Below are positions 23,731-64,000 of a stretch of 64,000 nucleotides of DNA, piece after piece. Numbering within the stretch: position 1 is the first letter of the stretch; each line of letters starts with the position of its first letter. The stretch is from a virus. Where the stretch lies: the IMG/VR virus record IMGVR_UViG_3300029258_003681. One strand, 5' to 3'. The translations under genes were made by a program, and so were the position numbers. A model generated the notes under the pieces. That model had not been told where the DNA came from. It did not search any database and worked only from the letters and a program-made list of their open reading frames with translations.

Positions 23731-23759
23731 TTGACAAACCGCCCCGTGGGGCGTAAGGT
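23731..23759 (+). promoter_or_regulatory. Sigma70-type promoter with palindromic spacer
   Basis: TTGACA-17 nt-TAAGGT; spacer contains CGCCCC-GT-GGGGCG. Confidence 0.6.
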
Positions 23760-29643: not shown

Positions 29644-29732
29644 GGGGGATTGGCTGAATTGGCAAAGCGGCGCCCTGGAACGGCGTAGCCTGCGTTTTTG
29701 ATGCAGTCCAGGTTCGAATCCTGGATCCTCCG
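29644..29732 (+). tRNA. tRNA-Ser (GGA)
   Basis: GGGGGAT/ATCCTCC acceptor, GCGCC-CTGGAAC-GGCGT, long variable arm, CCAGG-TTCGAAT-CCTGG. Confidence 0.9.
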
Positions 29733-29734
29733 CA

Positions 29735-29750
29735 GCGAACTGGAGTTCGC
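29735..29750. repeat. 16-bp palindrome copy 4 (GCGAACTGGAGTTCGC)
   Basis: Directly after tRNA-Ser(GGA). Confidence 0.95.
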
Positions 29751-29753
29751 GGG

Positions 29754-29993
29754 ATGACGAGAACGATGAAAAAGAAGAATGCCAGATACAAACAGTGCTT
29801 GATCGGTCGGGAGACCGCTCGGTGGACCGCGTGGATCCCCGAGGCGCTGGCACGTGTCGGCAAGGTGATTGTGCCGAAGGGTGAAGGGCCTGCGTTGGTT
29901 TTGGAGGCTTACAGGGGCATTGCGCTTCGTCACGATGAATTGATGGATTTCTCGGAGGAGTACAAACATCACCGAGGAAGGACGGATATTTAA
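29754..29993 (+). CDS. Small hypothetical protein inside tRNA array
   Basis: 79-aa ORF, ARYKQCLIGRET...TAWIPE. Confidence 0.55.
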   Translation: MTRTMKKKNARYKQCLIGRETARWTAWIPEALARVGKVIVPKGEGPALVLEAYRGIALRHDELMDFSEEYKHHRGRTDI

Positions 29994-29995
29994 AA

Positions 29996-30080
29996 TGAGG
30001 ATTGACAGAGTTGGAATTGTGCCCGCCTCGAAAGCGGTGGCCGTCGTAATGGCGCGGGGGTTCGAATCCCTCATCCTCAG
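29996..30080 (+). tRNA. tRNA-Ser (CGA)
   Basis: TGAGGAT/ATCCTCA acceptor, CCCGC-CTCGAAA-GCGGT, long variable arm. Confidence 0.85.
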
Positions 30081-30082
30081 CT

Positions 30083-30158
30083 GTGGCCGTAGCTCAAGTT
30101 TTGGTAGAGCGCGGGATTGTGGCTCCCGTGGTTGGGGATTCGAATTCCCTCGGTCACT
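30083..30158 (+). tRNA. tRNA-His (GTG)
   Basis: GTGGCCG/CGGTCAC, GCTC/GAGC D stem, CGGGA-TTGTGGC-TCCCG. Confidence 0.9.
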
Positions 30159-30163
30159 CAACA

Positions 30164-30253
30164 GGAGGACTGGCAGAATTGGCATTGCGTCGGTCTTGAA
30201 AACCGTGGCTGTCCGTAAGCGCGGGCATGTGGGTTCGAATCCCACGTCCTCCT
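30164..30253 (+). tRNA. tRNA-Ser (TGA)
   Basis: GGAGGAC/GTCCTCC, loop CTTGAAA, long variable arm, GTGGG-TTCGAAT-CCCAC. Confidence 0.9.
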
Positions 30254-30258
30254 CTGAA

Positions 30259-30331
30259 GTCTCGGTGGCCGAGAGGCAAGGCATTCGGTTGCAACCCGAA
30301 ATGGACGTCGGTTCGACTCCGATCCGAGACT
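30259..30331 (+). tRNA. tRNA-Cys (GCA)
   Basis: GTCTCGG/CCGAGAC, TTCGG-TTGCAAC-CCGAA. Confidence 0.9.
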
Positions 30332-30334
30332 CAA

Positions 30335-30419
30335 GGAAGACTGCGCGAACGGTAAGCGACCGCACTGCTAATGCGAGGTCATCTGAAAGGGTGTGGGGGT
30401 TCGAATCCTCCGTCTTCCG
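30335..30419 (+). tRNA. tRNA-Ser (GCT)
   Basis: GGAAGAC/GTCTTCC, loop CTGCTAA, long variable arm, G discriminator. Confidence 0.9.
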
Positions 30420-30425
30420 CCGTAG

Positions 30426-30499
30426 GGGTGAGTGGTGTAATGGCAACACGCGTGGCCCCAGACCACGTTCTCAGGGTTCGAATCCTTGCTCACCTGCCA
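30426..30499 (+). tRNA. tRNA-Trp (CCA), C at position 33
   Basis: GGGTGAG/CTCACCT-G-CCA; CGTGG-CCCCAGA-CCACG. Confidence 0.8.
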
Positions 30500-30565
30500 G
30501 AAAAATGATTTTGCGCTGCAAGATTCGGCTCTGGCGGGTGGTACAATGGTGGCAGGAGGTAAGAG

Positions 30566-30730
30566 ATGGAGTGGAAAAACATGACGGAAGAGGAGAAGTT
30601 GAAATTGGCCGAGCAGACACAATCTGTATTGAAAACGATGACGAAAGAAGAAGAGGAGCGATTGAAGTCCTTGTTCAACATCGAGGAGGAAGATGCGCCC
30701 ATGGTCCAACGGCAGAGGCATCAGATTTAA
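30566..30730 (+). CDS. 54-aa acidic ORF whose 3' end overlaps tRNA-Leu(TAA); not in ORF track
   Basis: AGGAGG RBS, MEWKNMTEEEKLKLAEQ...; stop is the TAA anticodon. Confidence 0.5.
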   Translation: MEWKNMTEEEKLKLAEQTQSVLKTMTKEEEERLKSLFNIEEEDAPMVQRQRHQI

Positions 30731-30767
30731 GATCTGAGGGTTCCAGGTTCGAATCCTGGTGGGCGTA
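30695..30767 (+). tRNA. tRNA-Leu (TAA), short variable arm
   Basis: GCGCCCA/TGGGCGT-A; TCAGA-TTTAAGA-TCTGA; variable GGGTT. Confidence 0.85.
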
Positions 30768-30771
30768 CCGA

Positions 30772-30844
30772 GCGACTGTGGCCCAACGGCAGAGGCGTCG
30801 GTTTCAAGAACCGAAAGTTGGTGGTTCGAATCCACTCAGTCGTA
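30772..30844 (+). tRNA. tRNA-Leu (CAA), short variable arm
   Basis: GCGACTG/CAGTCGT-A; TCGGT-TTCAAGA-ACCGA; variable AAGTT. Confidence 0.85.
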
Positions 30845-30849
30845 CTCAT

Positions 30850-30922
30850 GGGAGGGTACCCCAACGGCAGAGGGGTCCGGTTGAGGGCCGGTTCAGTGAG
30901 GGTTCGAATCCCTCCTCTCCCA
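30850..30922 (+). tRNA. tRNA-Leu (GAG), short variable arm
   Basis: GGGAGGG/CTCTCCC-A; loop TTGAGGG; variable TCAGT. Confidence 0.85.
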
Positions 30923-30930
30923 CAAAATAT

Positions 30931-31001
30931 GGCTTCGTAGCTGAGGGGTTTAGCACTGGCCTGAAGAGCCGGAGACACTGGGTCGACTCCAGTCGAAGCC
31001 A
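30931..31001 (+). tRNA. tRNA-Phe (GAA)
   Basis: GGCTTCG/CGAAGCC-A; CTGGC-CTGAAGA-GCCGG; T loop GTCGACT (non-canonical first base). Confidence 0.8.
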
Positions 31002-31084
31002 CCGAGATATCAATTTGTCACATTTTGATATCAAATTGATACATGCAATAGCATGCGATTATATGCTGGAGCATGTCGTTATAT

Positions 31085-31161
31085 GCCCGCGTAGGCCAAT
31101 TGGCAGAGTCGTTCGGTTCAGGACCGAAATGTTGGTGGTTCGAGTCCACTCGCGGGTACCA
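31085..31161 (+). tRNA. tRNA-Leu (CAG), short variable arm, encoded CCA
   Basis: GCCCGCG/CGCGGGT-A-CCA; TTCGG-TTCAGGA-CCGAA. Confidence 0.9.
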
Positions 31162-31162
31162 T

Positions 31163-31249
31163 GGGAAGTGATTTAAGGCAGGCTGGGCCTGCGATGGGCT
31201 GTAACCCCGTTCCTCCACGAGGCGAGTGGTTCGATTCCACCGCTTCCCA
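31163..31249 (+). tRNA. tRNA-Tyr (GTA), atypical D arm
   Basis: GGGAAGT/GCTTCCC-A; ATGGG-CTGTAAC-CCCGT; long variable arm; GTGG-TTCGATT-CCAC. Confidence 0.7.
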
Positions 31250-31729
31250 CTACATGAAGATCTTTTTGAGCGTAGCGCGTAGGATGCTCTTGTCGGTTCC
31301 TTTGTTGAGCGCCAGGGCGTCTGTGACCTGTTGCTCGATCGGTTCGTCTCCAAGGCAATAGTAGTTCTGGGTATCTCCCGTGGCAGGACTTGTGGCGAGT
31401 TCGAGAAGAAGGGCGAGATCCAGGATGTCAGACTCGATTTCGAATATTAGAGCTGCACGTGCTTCTTCTCTGGTTTGGTAGATGGAGAGATCATCGTAGT
31501 CGAATCGGTATGGTACTTTTTCTTTGTTGATGGGGTCGTCGATTACGATTCCTTCTGCCGCGAGGTATGTTCCAACGGAGGGGATCTCTCTCTCTGTGAC
31601 TTTGGTGACCTCTAGCGTCTGGATTGCTCCTTCTCCTGTGTTTGACTGCAAGTCGGTGGCGTAGGCTGTTATCCCAGGCTTCAGCCAGTCCATGTTTCTT
31701 TCTTCGTCAGCCGTGTGTCGTTTGATCAT
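31250..31729 (-). CDS. Hypothetical protein
   Basis: Last gene of leftward block; AAGGAG RBS. Confidence 0.6.
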   Translation of the reverse strand: MIKRHTADEERNMDWLKPGITAYATDLQSNTGEGAIQTLEVTKVTEREIPSVGTYLAAEGIVIDDPINKEKVPYRFDYDDLSIYQTREEARAALIFEIESDILDLALLLELATSPATGDTQNYYCLGDEPIEQQVTDALALNKGTDKSILRATLKKIFM

Positions 31730-36416: not shown

Positions 36417-36640
36417 TGGCATTACCGAGTGATCGACAACAGGCGTACAAGCTGCGTATCGAGAATCGTCGATTTGAAGCTGAGAACAAAAAACTCAAGG
36501 CTGAGATTGAGCGCTTGCACACTGGTGCTTTGAAGATGGCGAGGATAATCGCGGCGGACCGCAACAATTGGTCCGAGGTCGGGGTTTCCTTCGACAAAAC
36601 GCCAGAGGATATTTTGGCCGAATTTGACATGGAGAGGTGA
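36416..36640 (+). CDS. Hypothetical coiled-coil protein
   Basis: ENRRFEAENKKLKAEIERL. Confidence 0.55.
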   Translation: MALPSDRQQAYKLRIENRRFEAENKKLKAEIERLHTGALKMARIIAADRNNWSEVGVSFDKTPEDILAEFDMER

Positions 36641-36641
36641 C

Positions 36642-37625
36642 ATGGATTTCAAGAAAATGGCTCAGGACAATATGATCCTGAAAATACGGGTTGGATCTCA
36701 TCTTTTCGGGACGAGTACTCCCGACAGCGATGAGGACTATTTCGGTGTGTTTATGCCGTGCGACGAGACGATCTTTGGGTTTCAGAGATGTGACGAAGTG
36801 GATCTCGGCGTGGTGGACAAGGACGACACAGGGCGCAACACGGCGGAGGCGGTCGACTTCAAGATCCACGATTACCGAAAGTTTGTGAAGACGGTGATGG
36901 AGAATAATCCAAATTTCATGCACGCGATCTTTGTGAACGAGGAGAACATCTTGTTCAAGGACGAACTGGGGTTCGCGGATCGGTTGCTGGCGCTGAAGCA
37001 TCGAATCGTCCACAAGGGGGCGTATCGGCGATTCATAAAGTACGCTGATTCTCAGCTGCACAAGATGCGGATCAAACCCGCGAACTATGCTGCGCTGGAG
37101 CGCGGGTTGGAGCTGTTGGAAGAAGAGTTCGATCCAGATAACGTGCTGGCTGATGTCACGGCGAGGTACACTGGAACGGACCTGATATTTGTTGACCAGG
37201 GCAAGGGAAAGCACGTCAAGTGTGGGGATCTGTTTATAGAGCGTGGAACCTTTGTGAAAAAGGCCAAGAAGATGATTCGGCATCGGCTGGCTAACGCGAC
37301 GAGCAGGCACGTGCTTTTCACGAAATACGGCTACGATACAAAGTTCGCGTCGAATCTGATCCATCTTTTGATGACGGGCAGGGAGATCATGGAGACTGGC
37401 AGGATCAAGTTTCCATTGACCTACGCCAACCACGTTCTCGATGTGAAGCAGGGCAAGTACTCGGTGGATGAGATTGAGAAGTGGGCCGAGCAGCTGAAGG
37501 AGGAGGCTCGGGTGGCTTACGAGGAGACCGAGGTACGGGCGAAGCCAGCTGCCGATCTTGAGAAGTTCGCCATGCGCGAGCTGTATAAATGGTCGCAACT
37601 GACAACGAAACTCAAGGAGGAGTAA
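36642..37625 (+). CDS. DNA polymerase beta-superfamily nucleotidyltransferase (RlaP/PF10127-like)
   Basis: GSHLFGTSTPDSDEDYFGVF (GS..G....SDxD), ENNPNFMH, YDTKFASNLIHLL. Confidence 0.85.
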   Translation: MDFKKMAQDNMILKIRVGSHLFGTSTPDSDEDYFGVFMPCDETIFGFQRCDEVDLGVVDKDDTGRNTAEAVDFKIHDYRKFVKTVMENNPNFMHAIFVNEENILFKDELGFADRLLALKHRIVHKGAYRRFIKYADSQLHKMRIKPANYAALERGLELLEEEFDPDNVLADVTARYTGTDLIFVDQGKGKHVKCGDLFIERGTFVKKAKKMIRHRLANATSRHVLFTKYGYDTKFASNLIHLLMTGREIMETGRIKFPLTYANHVLDVKQGKYSVDEIEKWAEQLKEEARVAYEETEVRAKPAADLEKFAMRELYKWSQLTTKLKEE

Positions 37626-42344: not shown

Positions 42345-42482
42345 CAGTTGAATAACGCGTTGCACTGTGGCAATATGCCCTGGTGATACTCGACGCTGAT
42401 GTCGGGGAGGAATGAGGAGTAGATGGTACGTTACAAAATTCACACAAGGTCAACACATAGTCGAAGGAGTTACAATAATGAG

Positions 42483-43151
42483 ATGAGGGGTGAGGAGGTG
42501 CAATCGCTTCTGACCAAGGTTCATTTCATGATGTCTATTGCGCTCGCGGTGACAGCGGTGTTTGCCTGGGTGTGCATTGGGCGCGACTTGTTCAGCATCG
42601 ATCCCGAGACACAAAAGATGATGATGAGCGAGTATTGGATCGGCGCGCTGGTCGCTGAGATCGTGGTGGTTCTCATCTTGATATTCGGGATCGACCATTT
42701 GCACAACGGGGTGGCGGGGCTGCTGTTTTTCTTTTATGCGGCTCTGAATGGCGTGACAATCGCTCCTGTCGTGGCGGCTTATACGGAGGGGTCGGTGGCT
42801 CTTGCCTTTGTGGTAACGGGCGGCACTTTTCTGGCGATGAGCATCTACGGTGCGACGACGAAGAAGGATCTGGATAGCATCGGGGCGTTTTTGTTCATGG
42901 GCTTGTGTGGGTTGATCCTGGCGATGCTCATGAATTTTTTGTTTCGTAACGAATTGATGGATTTTCTCATCAGTTGTGCGGCGGTGCTGATATTCACTGG
43001 GCTGACAGCCTGGGACACGCAGAAAATAAAAAGTGGCAAGATCCCAGGGGGTCGTGCGGGGAACAAGGTGGTGTTCGGGGCGCTGATGTTGTACCTGGAT
43101 TTCATCAACCTTTTCTTGCATCTCTTGCGATTGCTTGGCCAGAAAAAGTAG
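42483..43151 (+). CDS. Bax inhibitor-1 / YccA family membrane protein
   Basis: About 7 TM helices; FYAALNGVTI, YGATTKKDL, GLTAWDTQKIK, ALMLYLDFINLFLHLLRL. Confidence 0.9.
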   Translation: MRGEEVQSLLTKVHFMMSIALAVTAVFAWVCIGRDLFSIDPETQKMMMSEYWIGALVAEIVVVLILIFGIDHLHNGVAGLLFFFYAALNGVTIAPVVAAYTEGSVALAFVVTGGTFLAMSIYGATTKKDLDSIGAFLFMGLCGLILAMLMNFLFRNELMDFLISCAAVLIFTGLTAWDTQKIKSGKIPGGRAGNKVVFGALMLYLDFINLFLHLLRLLGQKK

Positions 43152-51944: not shown

Positions 51945-52134
51945 GGATGCTGGAAGCCTTCGAGCTGGCAGAGGCCGTCGGCGATAAGGCATTGACGATT
52001 GATGAGTTATTGTTTGTGGCAGATGCGCGAAAGCGGAAGGGATGCCGCACTTTGAAATCTGCGTTATCCGCCGATGAACGTCGGCGAGTGATGAATCTTG
52101 GGTTGAAATGCAAAGCGTGGAAGGAAGAAAACCG

Positions 52135-52470
52135 ATGAAGAAAAAAGCCGAGAAAAAGAGTGCAAAGAAGAGTGTTGCGAAGAAAAATGTTGTGGAAAAA
52201 TCTGTGTTTCGTCCATTGCATGACAACGTAGTCATCGAGAAGGACACGGCCAATACTGAGGACAAGGTAACAAAGGGCGGTCTTTTCATTCCTGGCTCGG
52301 CTACTCAGCCGCCGAATACTGCGAAAGTGATCGCTGTTGGTCCTGCGGTAGAGGGCCTCAAGGCTAACGATGTCATTGTTGTTGGTACTTTCTCGGGGAC
52401 GAAGGTAGTGGTCAATGACGAGGAATATGTGGTTATCAAATTTGATGATGTCCTGGGCTTGTACGAATAG
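52135..52470 (+). CDS. groES: Co-chaperonin GroES with Lys-rich N-terminal extension
   Basis: FRPLHDNVVI, TKGGLFIP, AKVIAVGP, FSGTKVVVNDEEYVVIKFDDVLG. Confidence 0.9.
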   Translation: MKKKAEKKSAKKSVAKKNVVEKSVFRPLHDNVVIEKDTANTEDKVTKGGLFIPGSATQPPNTAKVIAVGPAVEGLKANDVIVVGTFSGTKVVVNDEEYVVIKFDDVLGLYE

Positions 52471-53338: not shown

Positions 53339-53890
53339 ATGGAAAGGTTGGAAGTGTTCAAAGAGGAGATCTTGTCGATGAATGCCCGTAAGCGGAGACT
53401 TCAAGATGAGATCGATAAAATTGACGGTCGTATCCAGGTTCTCAGGGAGATCATCAATGATGGCTCGACAACGGAGCGGTCGCGGGTGAGGGCTGGGTTG
53501 TTTCCTCGGGGTGAGCTTCCTACGCACTTGCTGGCTGTTGTGGAGGAGTCGGATCGGCCCCTTGATTCAAAAGAAGTCGCGAAGATCTTAAAGATGCGCC
53601 ATTCGTGTCTGAAGGATGTTCCCCTGAAAAACATTGAGCAGGCTGCGTCGTCGGGCCTGTCGGATTTGTGCAAGAGGCACCGTCGTTTGAAGGCAGAAAA
53701 GGGGCCTGGTCGTCTGCTTCGTTACTCGGCGGCGCTTCCTCCTCTTGACGGCACTCTTGTTGTGTCTCACGATCACATTGGGATGATCCCCCCAATGCCT
53801 CACGATGAGAAAGCCCCACAGACCGACGAGGATGGCTTTGTGGACCCCGACTCGGTCCTTGGCGCCCCTGATGAGGGGCAGCATGAGTAA
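53339..53890 (+). CDS. Coiled-coil plus winged-HTH-like protein
   Basis: LLAVVEESDRPLDSKEVAKIL...SSGLSDL. Confidence 0.5.
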   Translation: MERLEVFKEEILSMNARKRRLQDEIDKIDGRIQVLREIINDGSTTERSRVRAGLFPRGELPTHLLAVVEESDRPLDSKEVAKILKMRHSCLKDVPLKNIEQAASSGLSDLCKRHRRLKAEKGPGRLLRYSAALPPLDGTLVVSHDHIGMIPPMPHDEKAPQTDEDGFVDPDSVLGAPDEGQHE

Positions 53891-55067
53891 GCCCAAAATA
53901 CTGGTCACAGGGGGGCCTGTCGCGGCCAATCTGGATGCGGTGAAGCTCATCACGAATCGCTTCAAGGGTGGGCGCATGATGGGCTTGGCGCATAGTCTTG
54001 GCAATCGGGGAGCCAATGTTACGTATCTCGCCAGCGAGCTTCCGAAATATGACGGTCCACTTAGTAGCAATGTGGAGTGGATAAAGCATAGTGGGTTCGA
54101 TCACTACATGAATATTGTGCAGGTCCATGCGCGCGATTATAACGTGATCGTCCTTGGGGCAGCGGTGGCGAATCTGATCCCCGATAAGCGGTGGCAGGAG
54201 CTGATGCTCAAAGATGGCAAGTTTCCCTCGCACAATTATGAGGAGGACGATCCTGTGCCGATTCTTTTTCGGATCGCGCCGAGGATTATCAATCGTGTGC
54301 GCGAGGTGGCTCCTTACGCGAAGCTGGTCGGTTTCAAGCTTCTCAGCGGGGTTGCTCATGACGAGCTTATTCGTGCGGCGCAGCTGACCCAGAGGGAGGC
54401 GAGGGCGCATCTTGTGGTTGCCAATGACGCGAAGAATCTTAATGAGAAATTCGGAGTGACGCCAGAGGGCGGAGAGTTTTGCATTGAGAATCTTGCCGAA
54501 ACCATTTACGACATGGCGAAAGATAAGCATTATACGTCTGTACCTGCCAGCTTGGATCTTGGGTCTTTTTACGATGAGGGGCTTGAGCATGAGGAGCCTG
54601 TGGTTGATGCTTTGAATCGTCTGAAGGATGTTGCAGAGGGATATGAGCCAGAGCTGCTCATGGGAAAGCAGTCCAATGGAATGATATTTGGCTGCGTTGC
54701 TGTTCGCGTGATGGATGGCACAGGGCGCTTTGTGATCTCTGCCCGAGGCAAAAAGAACATCAAAGAGGCGACGGTTGTTTGTCGGGTGGATCACGAGAAG
54801 CGAAGATTGGTAGTGGGGGGTGGCACGGCCAAAGCGTCGTTGAATGCTCCGTTGATTGATCAAATCTTCAAGAAGGTTCCCGATGCGAATGTAGTGGTTC
54901 ACTGGCACGATCATGGATCTGATTCAGCTGCCTTTTCATACAGCTTGCCATATGCACAGCCAGGAACGGTACGAGATTCGCTTCGGGATTTCCCAGTGGA
55001 ATGGGGGGATGATGGGCGCATTTGGTTCGCGATTGCTGGGCATGGTGAGTTTAGGGTGATGAAATGA
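53883..55067 (+). CDS. CoaB/DFP C-terminal (phosphopantothenate-cysteine ligase-like) domain fused to class II aldolase/adducin-like domain
   Basis: KILVTGGP...DAVKLITN, GAAVAN, LVGFKL, LVVAND; C-terminal FVISARGK, KASLNAPL, VVVHWHDH. Confidence 0.75.
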   Translation: MSKPKILVTGGPVAANLDAVKLITNRFKGGRMMGLAHSLGNRGANVTYLASELPKYDGPLSSNVEWIKHSGFDHYMNIVQVHARDYNVIVLGAAVANLIPDKRWQELMLKDGKFPSHNYEEDDPVPILFRIAPRIINRVREVAPYAKLVGFKLLSGVAHDELIRAAQLTQREARAHLVVANDAKNLNEKFGVTPEGGEFCIENLAETIYDMAKDKHYTSVPASLDLGSFYDEGLEHEEPVVDALNRLKDVAEGYEPELLMGKQSNGMIFGCVAVRVMDGTGRFVISARGKKNIKEATVVCRVDHEKRRLVVGGGTAKASLNAPLIDQIFKKVPDANVVVHWHDHGSDSAAFSYSLPYAQPGTVRDSLRDFPVEWGDDGRIWFAIAGHGEFRVMK

Positions 55068-55783
55068 TAAATGATTTCATAAACATGGATGCTCCTGACT
55101 ACGAGCGGTTGTACGCCAGATTTCTGAAACGCCCCATTGATGATCTGCTTTTGGCTGTTGGGCCGATCGAGGGCAAGCGAGTGCTTGACCTGTGCGCGGG
55201 AGGGTTGCGCGCGAGCGTGCGCGCGAAGGAGCTGGGTGCCGCATATGTTTGTGCTGTTGACATCTCGTCATCAATGTTGTGGTCGCCTAGCATAGAGAAC
55301 CGATGGAAGGCTGAGAGCCTCCCCGATGTGCGTGTGGTTGCGGACATTTCGAAGTGGGGACGGACGGAGTCTTTCTCTCCATATTTGAGCAATACTTTAT
55401 TTTTTGATTTGGTTGTTTGCCAGCAGGGGGTGAATTATTGGTGGGGCAAATATGCCGTGGCGAATATTGCGGCATCTATGAAGGAAGACGGGTGTTTTGT
55501 TTTCAATACGTTTGTCCAGCGTCCTGACGAGGTCCCCAAGAGGAGAGAGTATGAGATTGATGGGCGATCCTATACTGAAGTGAGCTGGCTCGTTGGCGAC
55601 ATCGTTGTGCATGTCCAAACGTGTGAAGGCGAGTCGCACTCCTCAACCTTTCGCTGGATTCCTCATGGTGAGTTCGTGGATGTTTTGAAGATGCATTTTT
55701 CGGATATTGAGACTCTCTATGATGATAGGTGCCGCTCCATAATTTATGTTTGTCGGAAGGGGTTGACTAACGCAGGCGACTAG
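55064..55783 (+). CDS. Class I SAM-dependent methyltransferase
   Basis: VLDLCAGG, AVDIS, FDLVVCQQGVNYW. Confidence 0.85.
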   Translation: MINDFINMDAPDYERLYARFLKRPIDDLLLAVGPIEGKRVLDLCAGGLRASVRAKELGAAYVCAVDISSSMLWSPSIENRWKAESLPDVRVVADISKWGRTESFSPYLSNTLFFDLVVCQQGVNYWWGKYAVANIAASMKEDGCFVFNTFVQRPDEVPKRREYEIDGRSYTEVSWLVGDIVVHVQTCEGESHSSTFRWIPHGEFVDVLKMHFSDIETLYDDRCRSIIYVCRKGLTNAGD

Positions 55784-56569: not shown

Positions 56570-56800
56570 ATGCAGCTGAAGTGTCCACGATGTCGGAAGC
56601 GTATTTTGAGTTGGAAGATGATAGGTGGAATGCGTCTTCTTCATAGCTATAAGAATGGGAAGCTTTTCTATCAGGTTACGTGTTCCAAATGTGGCAGTTG
56701 GAAGATGAGTCAAAAGACCGAACAAAAGCTCCGAGCGAGAGCCGAGAGCATAGAACAACGCTGCAAATGCTGTGGTGTTAAGAAAGGAAAAAGAAGATGA
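56570..56800 (+). CDS. Small Zn-ribbon protein
   Basis: CPRC, CSKC, CKCC. Confidence 0.55.
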   Translation: MQLKCPRCRKRILSWKMIGGMRLLHSYKNGKLFYQVTCSKCGSWKMSQKTEQKLRARAESIEQRCKCCGVKKGKRR

Positions 56801-57597
56801 AGAGTGTACATCTGTTACTGATCGACCCTCAGTTTGACTTCTGTGACCCTGCGGGATCCCTCTGCGTTCCTGGTGCGGATCAGGACATGGATCGAGTGGC
56901 CGAGATGATCAGGCGGGTCGGCGGCAAGTTGGCGGATATCCATGTCACATTGGATCAGCATCATCTTCTGGATGTCGCCCATCCGCTGATGTGGCGCGAC
57001 AAGGATGGCAACCCGCCACCTCCCTTCACGATCATCACAGCGAAGGACATCGAGGAAGGAAACTGGACGCCAGTTCGTCCTTCTTTCACGCGCAAGATGA
57101 TCGAGTATGCCAAGGGGTTGGAGTTTAGTGGACGCTATCCTCTTTGTATCTGGCCTCCGCACTGCTTGATCGGGACTCTTGGCGCGACGATGGTGGATTC
57201 GATTCGTGTGGCTCTTGATGCATGGGTCAACGACAGCCCAGCGATCGTGGACTTCGTGTCCAAGGGATCCAACATCTGGACCGAGCACTACTCGGGCGTG
57301 AAGGCCGAGGTTCCCGATCCTGGCGATCCGAGCACTCAGCTCAATACGCGGCTGATTCAGACGCTGGAGGAGGCCGACGAGATCCTGATTGCGGGAGAGG
57401 CGGGATCGCACTGCCTGGCGAACACGGTGCGGGATATCGCAGATGGTTTTTCCGACGACAGTCTCATTGCCAAGTTTGTGCTGATCACGGACGGCACGAG
57501 CCCCGTTCCTGGGTTCGAGAATTTGCAGGGCGATTTCATCACCGAGATGACGGGGCGTGGCATGAGGACGATCACGGCAGACGAGGTGTTGAGATAA
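56797..57597 (+). CDS. pncA: Nicotinamidase (isochorismatase / cysteine hydrolase family)
   Basis: LLIDPQFDFC, DQHH...HP, WPPHC, SKG, EHYS, AGEAGSHCLANTV. Confidence 0.8.
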   Translation: MKSVHLLLIDPQFDFCDPAGSLCVPGADQDMDRVAEMIRRVGGKLADIHVTLDQHHLLDVAHPLMWRDKDGNPPPPFTIITAKDIEEGNWTPVRPSFTRKMIEYAKGLEFSGRYPLCIWPPHCLIGTLGATMVDSIRVALDAWVNDSPAIVDFVSKGSNIWTEHYSGVKAEVPDPGDPSTQLNTRLIQTLEEADEILIAGEAGSHCLANTVRDIADGFSDDSLIAKFVLITDGTSPVPGFENLQGDFITEMTGRGMRTITADEVLR

Positions 57598-57649
57598 GCG
57601 GTTGAAAACCAAGGACGGTTCCCGAGGGAGCCTTGTGAAAGGATGAAAG

Positions 57650-58405
57650 ATGCCAAAGTTGAATGATGACAGTTTGATGGAGGAGCGGACGCTCCCCAAT
57701 GCTTCCTTCGGGTACAGCGCGACTCGAATCGAGGAGCTAGGCGCAACAGAATACACGACGGTCGACCTGATCGTGGATGTGAGCGGCAGCGTGGATGCTT
57801 ACGCGAAAGACATGGAGAAGGCGATCCAGGAGATCGTCAATGCCTGCAAACTCTCGCCACGGGCTGACAACCTGATGATCCGTTTCGTGACTTTCAACCA
57901 GCGGATGGCCGAAATTCACGGCTACAAGTTGCTGGAGAATTGCAACCTTTCCGACTACGACAATGTTCTCTCTTGCTACGGCGGGACGGCCCTGTTTGAC
58001 GCGGCAGAGAACGCGGTTCTGTCGGCGGTCGACTATGCTAAGAGCCTCACCGACAACGACTTCGCGGTGAACAGCATCGTGTTTTTCCTCACGGACGGGG
58101 ACGACAATAGCTCGGCGGTGAGCGCGAACGCGGTGAAGATGGCCCTGGAAGAGGCGACTCGATCTGAGGCGACAGAGAGCATGGTGTCGATTCTGATCGG
58201 TGTCGGCGTGGGAGGATATGCTGACATAAGCAAGTTCCTGAAGAAGTTCGAGCAGGATGCGGAGCTGACTCAGTACGTCGAGACCAAGGATGCGAACGCG
58301 AAGACGCTGGCCAAGCTTGCCGAGTTTGTGAGCAAGTCAATCAGCGCGCAAAGTCAAGCGCTTGGAACAGGTGGGCCGTCGCAGCCCACTTCGTTGAGCA
58401 TCTGA
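57650..58405 (+). CDS. vWA domain protein (TerY/YegL-like)
   Basis: DVSGS MIDAS, GGTALFDA, FFLTDGDD. Confidence 0.85.
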   Translation: MPKLNDDSLMEERTLPNASFGYSATRIEELGATEYTTVDLIVDVSGSVDAYAKDMEKAIQEIVNACKLSPRADNLMIRFVTFNQRMAEIHGYKLLENCNLSDYDNVLSCYGGTALFDAAENAVLSAVDYAKSLTDNDFAVNSIVFFLTDGDDNSSAVSANAVKMALEEATRSEATESMVSILIGVGVGGYADISKFLKKFEQDAELTQYVETKDANAKTLAKLAEFVSKSISAQSQALGTGGPSQPTSLSI

Positions 58406-59124
58406 TGGCCAAGAAAAAATACCAGCCTGAATTCACCGATCTGACCGCGATCACGCGAAACGCGGATCGGCAGAGGACTGTAGTGATCCTGGAGGACCCA
58501 CACCGAGACAACCGCATGAAGTGGCTGGAATTCGGAGAGTGTCGGTTGCGTCGGATCGAGGGGCGTGAGCATGCCGAGTACGAGCTGCACGCGTTTCTGA
58601 TGCGGGGGGTGACCGATGGCGAGCACGACTCCGCGTGCGCTGTAAACCTGCCCCTGATCGGGGTGGAGTTCAGGGGGATCGAATACCAGCAGGCGACAAT
58701 CACGGCGTTTGTGTCCCTGGAGGGTGGCGAGCCATATCCCAACTTCCGAGTGCCGAGGCCAGGGTACAATCCGATGGAGCAAGAGGATGCGGCGCCGTGC
58801 GACAGCAAGCACTGCAAGGACGATCCGCACATCATCGTGTCCGATAGGTTCTATATGCCAGATTTCGATCCCGAGTTGTACGCGGCGGTTGCTGGGAGGC
58901 GCGTGAGGATCTCGATTGGTCCGAATCCGAATGAGAAGGAGGATGAGGTGCGGCGATTGACCAGGGAGATGATTTTCTTCAGGCATCTCGCAGGGGATAT
59001 GGCGCTTGAAATCAGGGGGCTGAGAAGCACCGAGCCTGACCCAGGCGTAGTCATCAAGCAGTACATACAGAGGGCTGCGGAGAGGGGTATTTTTCTCAAC
59101 GGGAGAGATGAAGATGCAGACTAA
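58405..59124 (+). CDS. Hypothetical protein
   Basis: TGATG overlap with vWA gene; no recognised motif. Confidence 0.6.
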   Translation: MAKKKYQPEFTDLTAITRNADRQRTVVILEDPHRDNRMKWLEFGECRLRRIEGREHAEYELHAFLMRGVTDGEHDSACAVNLPLIGVEFRGIEYQQATITAFVSLEGGEPYPNFRVPRPGYNPMEQEDAAPCDSKHCKDDPHIIVSDRFYMPDFDPELYAAVAGRRVRISIGPNPNEKEDEVRRLTREMIFFRHLAGDMALEIRGLRSTEPDPGVVIKQYIQRAAERGIFLNGRDEDAD

Positions 59125-59311
59125 TTTGGTACAGATTGCTCGCTGCGAGGCTTTCGACATCGTTCCCACCGAGGATGATGCGGAGGATGTGCGGTGCTCG
59201 AACATGGGGGTGAGGATCTTGGAGACCAACGAGTTCGGGCATCTACGACTGCGGTACGTTTGCAGGGATCACGGCTACGAGACGGGATTGGAGTACACCG
59301 ATGCAAGCTGA
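59108..59311 (+). CDS. Small hypothetical
   Basis: Overlaps both neighbours. Confidence 0.45.
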   Translation: MKMQTNLVQIARCEAFDIVPTEDDAEDVRCSNMGVRILETNEFGHLRLRYVCRDHGYETGLEYTDAS

Positions 59312-60158
59312 TCACGCATTTACAATTGGGCATTCGCACAAGGTTTGTGAGGACTACGCGAGATCTGGTGTGACTCCTCCTTATTCGGGATGTTCGACTG
59401 CGTATGCTTTCGTGTCCGACGGATGTTCCGGTAGCAAGGACACGGATGTTGGCGCAAGAATTCTGGTTTCTGGAGTCGAGCAGAGTCTATTTGCAGGTCG
59501 ACGGGTCAAGGCGACGGATGACATTTGTGCGATTATCTATTCCTGTGTTCCCGTGCAGCGGTTGTTGGGTCTTGATGAGGCGTGTCTGGATGCGACGCTT
59601 CTTGGGGTCTATGTTGACACCCGTATCAATGTCTTTGGGATGGGTGACGGTGTGATCGCGTTCAAGATGCATTCTGGTGATCTGGTGGCGTTCGACATTC
59701 TTTCGCCATCTGGGTTCCCACTTTATCCGTCCTACTTCTTGAACCGCTCTCGTCTGATCGGCGTCCAGGAAGAGATGCGGCAGGATCCAGAGCGCGGGTG
59801 GCGCGTGGACTATATCCGCGAGAAGGGGGACACGATCGAACGCGAAGAGCGGTGCTTTTGGAGTAGGGGTCTGGATCTGTTTGTGCAGAGCTACTCGCGG
59901 GGCGACGAGGATCCAAGCTGCGTGGACGATGACGATTTTATCGAGACAGTGGCGGTGTTTTCTGACGGGGTAGGCAGTTTTGTCGATGAGAACCGCCAGA
60001 GCGTGTCCCAGCTGGATGTGGTCCGCGAGCTGATGGCCTTCAAAGGCTACAAGGGGGAGTTTGTGAAGCGGCGACTCCAGGGCTTCCTGCGCGCGTGTGC
60101 GAAGCGCGGGTGGAAGCATGATGATGATCTCTCGATGGGCGCGGTTTACTTGGGTTGA
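59301..60158 (+). CDS. PP2C-like (PPM) phosphatase, YegK/TerY-P type
   Basis: GHSH...CED, VSDGCSG, DATLL, GDG, FSDG, DDD. Confidence 0.85.
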   Translation: MQADHAFTIGHSHKVCEDYARSGVTPPYSGCSTAYAFVSDGCSGSKDTDVGARILVSGVEQSLFAGRRVKATDDICAIIYSCVPVQRLLGLDEACLDATLLGVYVDTRINVFGMGDGVIAFKMHSGDLVAFDILSPSGFPLYPSYFLNRSRLIGVQEEMRQDPERGWRVDYIREKGDTIEREERCFWSRGLDLFVQSYSRGDEDPSCVDDDDFIETVAVFSDGVGSFVDENRQSVSQLDVVRELMAFKGYKGEFVKRRLQGFLRACAKRGWKHDDDLSMGAVYLG

Positions 60159-60182
60159 CAAACGCGCAGGAGTGCTTAGAGT
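60155..60182 (+). promoter_or_regulatory. Sigma70-type promoter overlapping PP2C stop
   Basis: TTGACA-16 nt-TAGAGT upstream of pncB. Confidence 0.6.
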
Positions 60183-60223
60183 GTGTGCTGATGGCCGTCG
60201 AGATGACGGCAGGAGGAGACTAA

Positions 60224-61414
60224 ATGGCCACTGTTGACGATCCAATCATCACGAGTCTTTTAGACAACGATCTCTACAAATTCTCAATGCAGAATGCTGT
60301 GTTTCGGTTGTTCCCAGATGCTTGCGTGGAGTACAGCTTCATTGATCGGGGTCAGACGAAATGGAGTCCAATGGGAGAGAGCCTGAAGGATCAGATTCAG
60401 GCATATTGCGAACTCCAGTTCGCCGAGGCCGAGATTGATTTTCTCCGACGGAAGTGCCCTTATCTCTCGAAGCATTACCTGGAGTGGCTCCAGGGATATC
60501 GGCCCGATCCCGACGAGGTTTCCCTCAAATGGGACGGTAGCCTTCGGAATCTGACTGTCCGTGGGCCATGGTATCGGACGATCCTCTGGGAGGTGCCTTT
60601 GATGGCTATGATCTCGGAGCAGTATTATCGTTCGGATCCTCAGATGGATGGCAAGATCCTGGACCGCAGCCGAGACATCGAGAAAGCTCGTCGCATGGGG
60701 CGGATTGCTCCGTACTCAGACTTTGGGACGCGGCGCAGGTTTTCGAGGGAGAATCACGAGCGTATTGTGCAGATCCACAAAAAGCACGGGGGCAGAAGAT
60801 TTCAGGGGACCAGCAACGTCTGGATGGCGATGAAATATGACCTGGATCCCAGGGGGACGATGGCCCACGAATGGATCATGTTTCATGCGGCGGCCTACGG
60901 CTATCGGAGCGCGAATGAGATGGCTCTGCGAAATTGGTACGATGTCTACAAAGGGGAGCTGGGGATTGCCCTGACCGACACGTACACGTCGCTGCGGTTT
61001 TTCCGTGATATGGATGTTGACCTGGCGCAGATCTACGACGGCTTGAGGCACGATAGCGGTGATCCGATCGCGTTTGCATACGAGGCGGCTGATTTTTATA
61101 TCGAGAACGGGATCCAGCCGAGTTCTAAGAAAATAGTATTTTCGGATGGGCTGACGGTTGATCGAGCTGAGGAGATTTACGAGGCTTGCAAGGGGGTGAC
61201 GAAACCCTCTTTTGGAATTGGAACTCATTTCACGAATGACCTTGGGGTGCCCGCGTTAAATATGGTCATCAAAATGACGAAGGCTTCCTTGGAGGGGGAG
61301 GACTATTTCATCCCGACGGTGAAATTGTCGGATGTTTCGGGCAAGCACACGGGATCCAAGGAGTCGGTGTATTCGTGCAAAATACAGCTGGGATTGGCTG
61401 AGACAGGAGTTTGA
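60224..61414 (+). CDS. pncB: Nicotinate phosphoribosyltransferase
   Basis: SLLDNDLYK, DFGTRRRFS, GTSNV, GTMAHEW, TDTY, RHDSGDP, FSDGL, FGIGT, KLSD. Confidence 0.92.
   Translation: MATVDDPIITSLLDNDLYKFSMQNAVFRLFPDACVEYSFIDRGQTKWSPMGESLKDQIQAYCELQFAEAEIDFLRRKCPYLSKHYLEWLQGYRPDPDEVSLKWDGSLRNLTVRGPWYRTILWEVPLMAMISEQYYRSDPQMDGKILDRSRDIEKARRMGRIAPYSDFGTRRRFSRENHERIVQIHKKHGGRRFQGTSNVWMAMKYDLDPRGTMAHEWIMFHAAAYGYRSANEMALRNWYDVYKGELGIALTDTYTSLRFFRDMDVDLAQIYDGLRHDSGDPIAFAYEAADFYIENGIQPSSKKIVFSDGLTVDRAEEIYEACKGVTKPSFGIGTHFTNDLGVPALNMVIKMTKASLEGEDYFIPTVKLSDVSGKHTGSKESVYSCKIQLGLAETGV
60408..60423. repeat. 16-bp palindrome copy 9 (GCGAACTCCAGTTCGC)
   Basis: Inside pncB coding sequence (C-E-L-Q-F-A). Confidence 0.95.
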
Positions 61415-61415
61415 T

Positions 61416-62237
61416 GTGAGGGAAGAAATTGACAAAGTAGTAAAGTGGATCGGTGACTTTGTGGTTCAGGCTAAAGCTGACGGGGTTGTAGTTGGTCTGA
61501 GCGGTGGGGTGGATTCGGCGGTTGTGTGTGCTCTTGCGGTTGAGGCTCTAGGTGCTGAAAATGTGATTTGTCTTGCGATTCCGATCGAATCAGATCCCAG
61601 GGACATACTGGATGCCGAGCGTGTTTCCCAGCATCTTGGGATTGGAACGGTGTCGGTCTGCGATCTTGGCGCGGCATTCCAGGTGATGGCGATGACTCTT
61701 GACATGCGGTGCGGTTCGCGACGTGGGGACGGTATTGGACCAGACACTGTGCGGACTTCCCGTTCGCTTTGCCTCGCAAATATGAAGGCTCGACTTCGGA
61801 TGACGACTCTCTACAATGAGGCGGCGATGTGCAACTATCTCGTGATCGGCACTGGCAACAAGAGTGAGTTGATGCTTGGCTACGTCACGAAATGGGGGGA
61901 CAATGCTTGCGACTTTGAGCCTCTCGGTGAGTTTTACAAGACCGAGGTGGTCGAGATGGCTCGCGAGCTGGGATTACCAGAAGACATTTGCACGCGGGAG
62001 CCGAGTCCTGGCTTGGAGCTTGGGGTTACCGATCGAGTAGAGCTTGGTGGCGGTTATGATGAGATTGACCCGATTCTTAAATTTATCGCGGGAGGGGGGC
62101 GTTGGGAGTCGTTCGTTGATTGTAACGATGGGATTGGCTTTACGAAGGAGGACCAAGCGGATTACGAGCGGGTCCTGACTATGTACAGAAGGGCTGCGCA
62201 CAAGAAGAAAATGCCGCCTATGTTCCAGAGGGGGTAG
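61416..62237 (+). CDS. nadE: NH3-dependent NAD+ synthetase (GTG start)
   Basis: GLSGGVDS, NMKARLRM, GTGNKSE, GYVTKWGD, PLGEFYKTEV; no glutaminase domain. Confidence 0.92.
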   Translation: MREEIDKVVKWIGDFVVQAKADGVVVGLSGGVDSAVVCALAVEALGAENVICLAIPIESDPRDILDAERVSQHLGIGTVSVCDLGAAFQVMAMTLDMRCGSRRGDGIGPDTVRTSRSLCLANMKARLRMTTLYNEAAMCNYLVIGTGNKSELMLGYVTKWGDNACDFEPLGEFYKTEVVEMARELGLPEDICTREPSPGLELGVTDRVELGGGYDEIDPILKFIAGGGRWESFVDCNDGIGFTKEDQADYERVLTMYRRAAHKKKMPPMFQRG

Positions 62238-62238
62238 A

Positions 62239-62427
62239 ATGAAGATCCAATTTGATATGGGAGAGGTTTTGTCTCTGTTACTCGAATACATTTTAATAGT
62301 GGACAATGAGAGATTCAGGAAATTTCTTCGTCTGAAGCTCAAGGAAAATGAATACCCAGAGACGGCAGCGCTGATCCTTGGGGCTGTCGAAGCAGCGGAA
62401 TATAGAGATAAGGGGTTGTCGGGATGA
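62239..62427 (+). CDS. Small hypothetical
   Basis: Between nadE and kinase. Confidence 0.45.
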   Translation: MKIQFDMGEVLSLLLEYILIVDNERFRKFLRLKLKENEYPETAALILGAVEAAEYRDKGLSG

Positions 62428-64000
62428 AGCTGAAAATTGTAGGAGGGGGGCAAGTCAACCTGTCGAAGCGTGATTTTGTCGGCTCGGGCGGTGAGGGCAG
62501 CGTGTATGTACGGGGTGATACTGCTTACAAGATTTACGCGAAGTCTGATCGCGTGATCCCCGAGGGGAAGCTTCGTGATTTGTCTGGCATCAAGAACCCG
62601 AACGTGATTCGTCCGTTGAATATGTTGATGTCGCTCAAGAATAAGCCAGTCGGTTATACGATGAAATTCGTTCAGGGTGGTGTGCCGATTTGCCAGATGT
62701 TTACGAAGGCGTACAAAAAGCGCAATGGAATCGATCCTCAGATGGTTCTTGGGATTGTCCAGGATATGCAGGAGGGTCTTCGGAGTATTCATGCGGCGGA
62801 TGTTCTTGTGGTGGATCTCAATGAGATGAATCTGCTTGTGAAATCTTCGGATGTTTTCTGGATCGATGTGGACAGCTACGAGACACGGAACTATCCAGCG
62901 ACGGCGATCATGGATAGCATCAGAGACTGGCATGCCAATGGAAAGTGGTCTCGCGAGACGGACTGGTTTTCATGGGGGATTGTGAGTTTCCAGATGTTCA
63001 TGGGGATTCATCCCTACAAGGGCAAACATCAGTCTGTGAAAAAGATGCCAGATCGGATGAAGCAGAATCTCTCGGTTTTTAATCAGGAGGTCAAGGTTCC
63101 GAAGATGGTCCCGAGCTTTGATACGATTCCTGAGGCATATCGCCGCTGGTATCATGCGGTTTTTGAGGAGGGGCGTCGGGTGCCTCCTCCGAAGGATTTG
63201 GCTGCGGTGGTTGTGCTTGCGACGCCTCGTCAGATTTCGAGTACCGACAAGATTAAAATCTCGGAAATAAATTCGTTTGACATGGATGTCCTGCGGTACG
63301 CGAGATTAGGGGGGCTTGATCTTGTGGCGATGGATGGTGGCATTGTTTGCCTCACGAATGGGCGCGGAACGCCGATCACCCTGCGGGGAGATGGTCATTT
63401 TGGGCACACGGAGGCCAAGGCGCCCTTGTACGGCCGCTGGAAAGGTGGCGAGGCAATCCTGGTCGATCCACGAACAGGCGGCGCTGTGGGCCATCCTGTG
63501 CCCTGTCAGTCGATGATGGCGTATGAAGGACATTTTTATGTTCATCAAGGTGATAACATAATCGAAATGACAGCTAAGGAGGTGGGAGGTGCGACCATGC
63601 TTTTCCCACACCCAGTGGCGAATGTGATGCCGAAGGCGACCCAGTTGTTTGACGGTGTGGCGATCCAGAACATGCTGGGGACCTGGTACGCTTCGGTGTT
63701 TCCTGCTTCGAAGCGCAGCTACCAGGTTCGTCTGGCTGATTTGGACGGCTACAGGGTGGTGGACGCCAAGCATGATCGTGGTGTGTTGATTGTGATCGGG
63801 ACGAAGAATGGCCAGTACGACAAGTTCGTCTACCGCTTCGAGCGGGATTACACTCGGACGATCCTTTTCTGGAAGGACGAAGATGTGGTCTATTCGGGGG
63901 TCAATTTTGTGACTTTGGACAAGGGGGTGTGCGCGCATATTGATGAGGCTGAGGATCTTGTTTTGTTTGGCTCTTCGCCATCGGCGGATGGAGTAAAAAG
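62424..64000 (+). CDS. Ser/Thr protein kinase, YegI/TerY-P type (3' end outside window; absent from ORF track)
   Basis: Hand-translated, open to the end: GSGGEGSVY, AYKIY, VVDLNEMN, IDVDSY, TDWFS, GIHPYKG. Confidence 0.85.
   Translation, partial: MKLKIVGGGQVNLSKRDFVGSGGEGSVYVRGDTAYKIYAKSDRVIPEGKLRDLSGIKNPNVIRPLNMLMSLKNKPVGYTMKFVQGGVPICQMFTKAYKKRNGIDPQMVLGIVQDMQEGLRSIHAADVLVVDLNEMNLLVKSSDVFWIDVDSYETRNYPATAIMDSIRDWHANGKWSRETDWFSWGIVSFQMFMGIHPYKGKHQSVKKMPDRMKQNLSVFNQEVKVPKMVPSFDTIPEAYRRWYHAVFEEGRRVPPPKDLAAVVVLATPRQISSTDKIKISEINSFDMDVLRYARLGGLDLVAMDGGIVCLTNGRGTPITLRGDGHFGHTEAKAPLYGRWKGGEAILVDPRTGGAVGHPVPCQSMMAYEGHFYVHQGDNIIEMTAKEVGGATMLFPHPVANVMPKATQLFDGVAIQNMLGTWYASVFPASKRSYQVRLADLDGYRVVDAKHDRGVLIVIGTKNGQYDKFVYRFERDYTRTILFWKDEDVVYSGVNFVTLDKGVCAHIDEAEDLVLFGSSPSADGVK

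Follow-up and report, generated by a model that had tools for sequence, protein, structure and literature searches.

Depletion of NAD+ is among the commonest outcomes of bacterial antiviral immunity, and three phage pathways that rebuild the cofactor have been proven experimentally, all of them amidated or based on ADP-ribose (ADPR). NARP1 comprises Adps and Namat, the experimentally proven NARP2 comprises Nampt and Nmnat (Osterman et al., bioRxiv 10.1101/2024.02.11.579819), and NARP3 combines PnuC with NadR (PMC13464706). Enzymes of the deamidated Preiss-Handler route are also known from phages: jumbo phages such as 'Kuafu_71' carry pncB-nadD-nadE clusters and phage pncA has been described as well (computational work, PMC11662467, Microbiome 2024), while Xanthomonas phage X1 encodes pncB, nadM, nadD and nadE, and a role of phage pncB, nadD and nadE against NAD+ depletion was previously suggested (PMC13384950). 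In Pseudomonas aeruginosa, the NrtR-controlled genes pncA-pncB1-nadE (PA4918-4920) likewise occur without nadD (PMC7318152). Here, we analyzed a stretch of 64,000 nucleotides from the IMG/VR virus record IMGVR_UViG_3300029258_003681 (hereafter the window), in which genes for a nicotinamidase (PncA), a nicotinate phosphoribosyltransferase (PncB) and an NAD synthetase (NadE) lie between positions 56797 and 62237, in the company of genes for a vWA-domain protein, a PP2C-like phosphatase and a protein kinase. We read this locus as a predicted module for deamidating salvage of nicotinamide in a large, uncultured phage with a contractile tail, and assign this reading a probability of about 0.6.

The locus shares with the jumbo-phage clusters the grouping of deamidated-route PncB and NadE in a very large phage. 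It differs from them in lacking nadD and in having an added nicotinamidase, which makes nicotinamide and not nicotinate the entry point; moreover, interspersed among its genes is a vWA/PP2C/kinase triad on which those papers are silent. NARP2 is also phage-carried and leads from nicotinamide and phosphoribosyl pyrophosphate (PRPP) to NAD+, but it is amidated, runs through nicotinamide mononucleotide (NMN) with two enzymes and is independent of the host, whereas four steps would be needed here, via nicotinate, nicotinate mononucleotide (NaMN) and nicotinate adenine dinucleotide (NaAD), with one of them left to the host. The phosphoribosyltransferase is of the nicotinate type (NAPRT), and neither Pfam nor a NadD-like hidden Markov model (HMM) revealed an adenylyltransferase in the window, which sets the locus apart from NARP2. 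NARP1 and NARP3 are likewise phage-encoded means of restoring NAD+, but they rely on unrelated chemistry and families, namely ADPR-PP ligation (NARP1) and import and conversion of nicotinamide riboside (NARP3). Among the Pfam matches of the window's open reading frames (ORFs), we found no PRPP-synthetase-like family and neither PnuC nor NadR, and the NARP papers (10.1101/2024.02.11.579819; PMC13464706) make no mention of a phage nicotinamidase, PncB or NadE. With the P. aeruginosa operon, the phage locus has in common the same three enzymes and the same omission of nadD, and bacterial versions of the cassette described below are often preceded by NrtR; the phage copy differs in having no NrtR, in being served by a phage promoter and in its long 266-aa PncA, which is tied to vWA, PP2C and kinase genes. 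An earlier sequence-only reading of this DNA had announced a candidate third NAD+ reconstitution pathway. This has been overtaken by the publication of NARP3 (PMC13464706) and of phage Preiss-Handler clusters with pncA (PMC11662467): phage deamidating NAD genes are already known, and the locus is a variant of that theme and not a newly discovered third pathway. The same reading had taken the route to be the deamidated one, which agrees with the PncA-, PncB- and NadE-type identities predicted below.

All three enzyme genes are intact and co-oriented on the + strand, as had been stated, and the genes of the region are packed as in an operon. The three do not form the one dedicated block that had been pictured: four genes separate pncA from pncB, namely those for a vWA protein and a PP2C phosphatase, with a 239-aa ORFan and a 67-aa ORF between these two. 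The nicotinamidase gene (56797–57597, + strand) encodes a 266-aa protein that, judged from its sequence, is a divergent member of a long subfamily with a ~60-residue insert. A phmmer search against the PDB matched it to yeast Pnc1 and Mycobacterium tuberculosis PncA, and its catalytic triad D10/K156/C206 aligned with the triads of both. Across 22 homologues (59–88% identity), these three residues do not vary, and neither do the metal-site residues, D53 and H55 of the VTLDQHH motif and H122 of IWPPHC. The AlphaFold2 (AF2) model has a predicted local distance difference test score (pLDDT) of 90.7, and in a Foldseek comparison with the PDB ranks 1–13 were all nicotinamidases, among them 3v8e (E 3e-14), 2wta, 1ilw, 3r2j, 3pl1, 9u8m and 3o93, ahead of other isochorismatase-like amidases. 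Since the metal site of solved nicotinamidases binds the free pyridine nitrogen, we infer that the enzyme acts on free nicotinamide and not on NMN, nicotinamide riboside or NAD. The 266-aa family gave 4,565 matches in the protein database and occurs in the genomes of 497 bacterial species as well as on 166 IMG/VR contigs, many of which measure 200–550 kb. Viral and bacterial members are largely separate on the nicotinamidase tree (8 label changes versus ~52 after shuffling).

PncB (396 aa; 60224–61414, + strand) scored above the cut-offs of two NAPRTase models (NF003704, 425 bits against 379; TIGR01514, 374 bits against 269.55), and no model of the nicotinamide-specific NAMPT was listed among its NCBIfam matches. 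The HMM separation of NAPRT from NAMPT that had been proposed as a check thus places the predicted enzyme with the former. Its best PDB match, the Porphyromonas gingivalis NAPRTase 2im5 (E 1e-91), aligns over the full length, with GTHPHEW opposite the phage motif GTMAHEW; we take His215 within this motif to be the autophosphorylated residue, as in Salmonella PncB. NadE (273 aa; 61416–62237, + strand) matched PF02540 with 208.7 bits and TIGR00552 with 202.8 bits (cut-off 63.65). It carries the SGGVDS PP-loop at residues 29–34 and has a single domain without a glutaminase (CN-hydrolase) domain, as expected of an NH3-dependent NAD synthetase, and its top PDB matches are ordinary NH3-dependent NaAD synthetases (2e18, 7e-40; 3p52). 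The most likely start codon is the GTG at 61416, which has AGGAG seven bases ahead, lies one base past the pncB stop and is called as the start in the source contig; an ATG at 61332 was judged unlikely next to this AGGAG-backed GTG. With its start in this position, nadE would be translationally coupled to pncB. As one NH3 is released by the nicotinamidase and one NH3 is used by NadE, this balance may, speculatively, explain the NH3-dependent type.

The sequence-only reading had given pncB and nadE a promoter of their own at 60155, and this stands. The promoter (60155–60182, + strand; TTGACA-16-TAGAGT) consists of GTTGACAAAC, 17 nt, TAGAGT and precedes the two genes. The 9-mer TTGACAAAC occurs in eight copies in the window, all on the + strand, versus 0.53 expected and at most three in each of 100 shuffles. 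The copies of GTTGACAAAC lie at 23731, 26281, 34128, 39124, 49038, 50210, 52484 and 60155 on this strand; seven of the eight are intergenic, and a TAnnnT box follows every copy after ~17 nt at fixed spacing. The copy upstream of pncB is kept in a relative (L007). Overall, the motif resembles a class of sigma-70-type phage promoters whose −35 element is extended, located in the non-structural half of the window.

The DNA comes from a metagenome contig of 194,925 bp, with window position 1 at record position 120,921, and its source is an uncultured large phage of ~195 kb with a contractile tail. The window (~0.52 GC) shows a strongly positive GC skew throughout, and its + strand holds nearly all genes. 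Baseplate and tail families are found within it (PHROG baseplate wedge and hub; GPW_gp25, Phage_base_V and CIS_tube), and genes for sheath, tube, collagen-like fibre and glycosyltransferases lie just upstream in the source contig. The closest IMG/VR relative (G001) is a complete genome of 176,267 bp with direct terminal repeats, which shows the same gene neighbourhood in an internal position at 66–77% DNA identity. We therefore excluded that the block is host chromosome flanking a prophage, a concern raised by the sequence-only reading: phage structural genes stand on one side and phage-type ORFans on the other, and the cassette of G001 is internal to a terminally repeated genome. Contigs from several other samples encode an identical PncB. 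In a megablast search of 50,697 GenBank phages, the block gave no match, and tblastn recovered the long nicotinamidase from four uncultured records only and from no cultured phage.

The gene pncA is the first of a four-gene cassette that encodes the nicotinamidase, a vWA protein, a PP2C phosphatase and a kinase with a beta-propeller. The vWA gene (57650–58405, + strand; PF00092, 25.4 bits against a cut-off of 23.8) retains an intact metal ion-dependent adhesion site (MIDAS; DVSGS...T...D). The PP2C-like Ser/Thr phosphatase (59301–60158, + strand; PF13672, 24.1 bits against a cut-off of 24) shows the DG and SDG metal-site motifs. The Ser/Thr kinase (559 aa; PF00069, 34.8 bits) starts at 62424 on the + strand and is cut by the window end at 64000, with the full-length gene at L012:12201-13880. 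Its residues 277–559 (~280 aa) were modelled as a beta-propeller (AF2 pLDDT 88), with LRRK2 (kinase plus WD40) and propeller proteins as top matches, and the protein contains no CxxC motif and no zinc ribbon. A close described arrangement is the TerY-P triad, which, according to PMC11090510, unites vWA, PP2C and a Ser/Thr kinase with a zinc ribbon, or with an OB fold in the defence version. The likeness extends to the combination of these three domain types in a single operon and to the intact vWA MIDAS; the gene order of the cassette is kept in 160 loci. The phage cassette differs in that its kinase ends in a beta-propeller, in that the nicotinamidase is a fixed fourth member and in that NAD enzymes, not Ter or restriction genes, are its neighbours; PADLOC likewise assigned no family to vWA or PP2C and only weakly matched the kinase to PD-T4-6 and mad6. 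We found no description of the nicotinamidase-vWA-PP2C-kinase cassette in the searchable literature, including any of a nicotinamidase with vWA, PP2C or NrtR; the link thus appears to be undescribed there.

To quantify the association, we applied iterated HMM searches to 160 loci and counted neighbours wherever the nicotinamidase was flanked by at least 6 kb in either direction (66 viral, 37 bacterial loci). A vWA gene was near the nicotinamidase at 61 of these viral loci, where it comes after that gene, and at 31 of these bacterial loci, the kinase at 60/66 and 29/37, and PP2C at 59/66 and 19/37, most commonly in the order nicotinamidase, vWA, PP2C, kinase. PncB was nearby at 25/66 viral and 13/37 bacterial loci, and NadE at 15/66 and 1/37, respectively. 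Among all 80 viral loci found via the nicotinamidase, 28 had pncB within 8 kb and 17 had nadE. The pair pncB-nadE is thus a facultative insert in the cassette; elsewhere it is placed before the nicotinamidase, after vWA, after PP2C (as here) or after the kinase. Adjacency of pncB switches ~25 times on the nicotinamidase tree, which points to repeated association. The dedicated three-gene block of the sequence-only reading is not supported: PncA belongs to a cassette that lacks pncB and nadE far more often than it includes them. GIY-YIG/NUMOD homing-endonuclease genes are inserted in the nicotinamidase/pncB clusters of other phage contigs (L170:9924-10604; L152 near 6917).

We also grouped into clusters all further ORFs lying up to 3 kb from a cassette gene and searched a representative of each cluster against Pfam. 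NrtR (NUDIX plus NrtR winged helix) was found at 36 loci (29 bacterial, 7 viral), directly upstream in the representative scanned, and is the commonest neighbour of bacterial cassettes (29 of 80 bacterial loci). NrtR is an ADP-ribose-sensing repressor of NAD metabolism. The RNA 2'-phosphotransferase Tpt1/KptA occurred at 11 loci, ADP-ribosylglycohydrolase at 10 and RtcB at 6; the NAD-dependent Tpt1/KptA (e.g., L057:7218-7781) and the ADP-ribosylglycohydrolase (e.g., L047:1759-2832) adjoin bacterial cassettes, usually together with NrtR. NadD-like adenylyltransferases were encoded at 12 viral loci; TIGR00482 was their best model, with 80–111 bits just below its cut-off of 112.45. Because eight viral loci add such a gene to the same cluster and thereby encode all four steps, the route can be complete in phages, while seven others resemble the window in carrying pncA, pncB and nadE without nadD.

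That the adenylyltransferase step is not encoded in the window had been noted from the sequence and was confirmed: the Pfam scan of its 143 ORFs gave no match to PF01467, and a NadD-like HMM, searched against all six reading frames of the window and of L012, which reaches 7 kb beyond it, returned a best E of 0.27. Extending the search for NadD, NadM or NadR to the rest of the genome, as had been advised, gave a partial answer, with no adenylyltransferase flagged in precomputed Pfam annotations of record positions 81–192 kb (~111 kb) and only a weakly matching HxGH enzyme that resembles pantetheine-phosphate adenylyltransferase (PPAT). PF01467 is also absent from two complete relatives, G001 and G006, the second of which has pncA, pncB and nadE. 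Given that no phage copy was found in the ~111 kb inspected, host NadD is the likely supplier of this step. The HxGH enzyme (L191:2518-3000, 36.6 kb upstream of the window) is a 160-aa nucleotidyltransferase with HxGH and a C-terminal SSSR (TIGR00125, E 1.6e-5) and is a weak candidate for the missing activity. Its best model is the archaeal-type PPAT at 35 bits (cut-off 104), it matches NadD, NadR and NadM models at noise level (E > 0.1), and it sits among fibre and glycosyltransferase genes. A CoaB/DFP-domain gene (PF04127, E 8e-18) lies in the window directly upstream of the cassette region (53805–55783), and the sequence after it weakly matches class I methyltransferases (PF13649, 20.4 bits against a cut-off of 27; PADLOC mad2-like, E 1e-7); the HxGH enzyme and the CoaB-like gene together hint at CoA-related chemistry in this phage.

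In the proposed route, the nicotinamidase would convert free nicotinamide to nicotinate and NH3, as suggested by its Cys-Asp-Lys triad and its pyridine-nitrogen-binding metal site, and PncB would combine nicotinate with PRPP (and ATP) to give NaMN. The essential NadD of the host would then form NaAD, which the NH3-dependent phage NadE would amidate to NAD+, and the cassette would probably place the first step under a phosphorylation switch. As a net effect, the infected cell would maintain or regain its NAD+ from nicotinamide set free by NAD-cleaving enzymes. The most likely selective pressure would be NADase defences, for example Thoeris and SIR2 systems. A counter-defence role is plausible because NADase systems release nicotinamide, the entry substrate of the route, because bacterial cassettes sit under the ADP-ribose sensor NrtR and because the same genome encodes a Tad6-family protein. 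The latter (95 aa; L189:12708-12995, ~14 kb upstream of the window) matches the C-terminal half of the Pfam family Tad6 (PF25188, 73.9 bits, E 2e-20), which suggests that this phage meets TIR/SIR2 NADase immunity. Tad6 is an inhibitor of type I Thoeris that acts on the TIR protein ThsB (PMC13728456).

Several observations weigh against this reading of the locus. The nicotinamidase scores below the cut-offs of its family models (PF00857 Isochorismatase, 21.7 bits against 27; NF008623, 29.3 bits against 174), and 45 of the 80 viral cassette loci have no pncB, nadE, NadD-like or NrtR gene nearby. In G001, which retains all four cassette genes at 68–88% identity, the region corresponding to window positions 60511–62406 (two thirds of pncB, all of nadE and a 62-aa ORF) is replaced by ~135 bp. 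A 600-bp inserted ORF is followed there by a pncB remnant of ~105 codons (L011:9391-10439), and the 1.9-kb deletion amounts to a natural knockout of the salvage insert. Because G001 deleted both genes and kept the cassette, pncB and nadE are dispensable and the cassette is independent of them. PADLOC placed none of the nicotinamidase, vWA, PP2C, PncB and NadE proteins in a defence or anti-defence family and returned weak PD-T4-6 and mad6 matches for the kinase. NadE falls into a short (~250-aa) subfamily with the Francisella tularensis NMN synthetase 3fiu (E 3e-30), which leaves NaAD as its putative substrate; finally, a phage NadD or NadM could lie in the first ~81 kb of the source contig, outside the scanned 81–192 kb. 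This last point would make the pathway autonomous, with either the HxGH enzyme (HxGH plus SSSR, TIGR00125 match) or a gene in those 81 kb as the adenylyltransferase. The eight related phage loci with NadD-like genes speak for such an arrangement, which we nevertheless consider improbable given the PPAT-like character and the surroundings of the HxGH enzyme and the absence of PF01467 from G001 and G006. Even less credit is due to the idea suggested by 3fiu, that NadE is a Francisella-type NMN synthetase and the route leads from nicotinamide via nicotinate, NaMN and NMN to NAD+ with an NMN adenylyltransferase as the last enzyme. The top matches of NadE are the ordinary NaAD synthetases given above, the adenylyltransferases in the clusters of phage relatives fit NadD models best (TIGR00482), and deamidation followed by re-amidation at the mononucleotide level would bring no gain over NAMPT.

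The remaining objections bear on what the module is for. A general metabolic role fits as many of the facts as counter-defence does. In its specific form, auxiliary metabolism would provide more NAD+ or recycle nicotinamide from ordinary NAD consumers during the long and resource-hungry infection of a large phage, irrespective of host NADase immunity; we hold this to be unlikely, although it deserves serious consideration. NAD synthesis genes of jumbo phages have mainly been interpreted in this way (PMC11662467), the module copies a housekeeping salvage operon of bacteria (PMC7318152), and both the lack of a match to known anti-defence families and the loss of pncB and nadE from G001 with the rest kept would suit it. 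It is countered by the absence of the NAD-dependent DNA ligase (PF01653), an obvious phage consumer of NAD, from five relatives, by the Tad6-family Thoeris inhibitor in the same genome, and by the placement of bacterial versions under the ADP-ribose-sensing NrtR, which ties them to NAD cleavage and not to bulk synthesis. The notion that the phage feeds its own NAD-dependent ligase is likewise unsupported, as PF01653 is absent in the five relatives. Rather doubtful, in our view, is the proposal that the cassette itself is the real unit, a TerY-P-like conflict or signalling system whose output is nicotinamide removal or the sensing of NAD breakdown, for instance in superinfection exclusion or in the control of host NADases, with pncB and nadE as secondary additions. 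The census favours it, with the cassette present at ~90% of well-flanked viral loci versus 38% for pncB and 23% for nadE, as do the persistence of the cassette in G001, its wide distribution in bacterial chromosomes and the existence of TerY-P-like triads as stand-alone defence systems (PMC11090510, citing Gao 2020). Yet PADLOC supports it no further than the weak kinase matches, the kinase bears a beta-propeller and neither a zinc ribbon nor an OB fold, no toxic effector is evident, and the recurrent neighbours are all NAD salvage or ADP-ribose enzymes, a better fit to metabolic control than to an effector system. We retain the deamidating salvage module as the preferred reading. One distinctly tentative extension is that the cassette acts as a phospho-switch that senses NAD+ cleavage or the state of infection and opens the deamidating route on need, which together with pncB, nadE and, in some phages, nadD would amount to a regulated fourth NAD+ pathway against Thoeris and SIR2 immunity in huge phages.

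If the deamidating route does rescue phages, nicotinamide released by NADases would be reclaimable through classical bacterial salvage chemistry, and phages would complement the non-essential or rate-limiting host steps (PncA, PncB and NadE) while borrowing the essential NadD. If the kinase and phosphatase control the entry enzyme, no earlier NAD+ counter-measure would be known to be regulated and no earlier TerY-P-like triad to serve metabolism, and such a switch would prevent the constitutive over-production responsible for the cost of NARP2. Should no rescue be seen, these widespread genes of huge phages would be ordinary metabolic helpers, which would be a useful outcome too.

The remaining genes of the region are all on the + strand. 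A lineage-specific 76-aa zinc-ribbon ORF (56570–56800; weak Lar_restr_allev match, E 0.008) with CxxC...CxxC pairs has a stop codon that overlaps the pncA start (ATGA) and was found in identical source contigs only. The 239-aa ORFan between the vWA and PP2C genes (58405–59124) stands outside the conserved cassette: it had no Pfam, PHROG, NCBIfam or PADLOC match and no relatives among the 160 loci, and an Atlas feature and structure search yielded nothing usable, the Atlas model being of low confidence. The 67-aa ORF (59108–59311) overlaps both of its neighbours and is called as a gene in the source contig, and the 62-aa ORF between nadE and the kinase gene (62239–62427) is the one lost along with nadE in G001. 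Farther upstream, the window holds a 13-tRNA array at 29644–31250 (four Ser, four Leu, and one each of His, Cys, Trp, Phe and Tyr); a 393-aa ORF at 29995–31176 overlies this array and was rejected as spurious. Additional genes encode an RlaP-type Pol-beta nucleotidyltransferase (36624–37625, E 5e-13), a membrane protein of the Bax1-I/YccA family (42423–43151, E 3.5e-52) and a Cpn10/GroES homologue (52108–52470).

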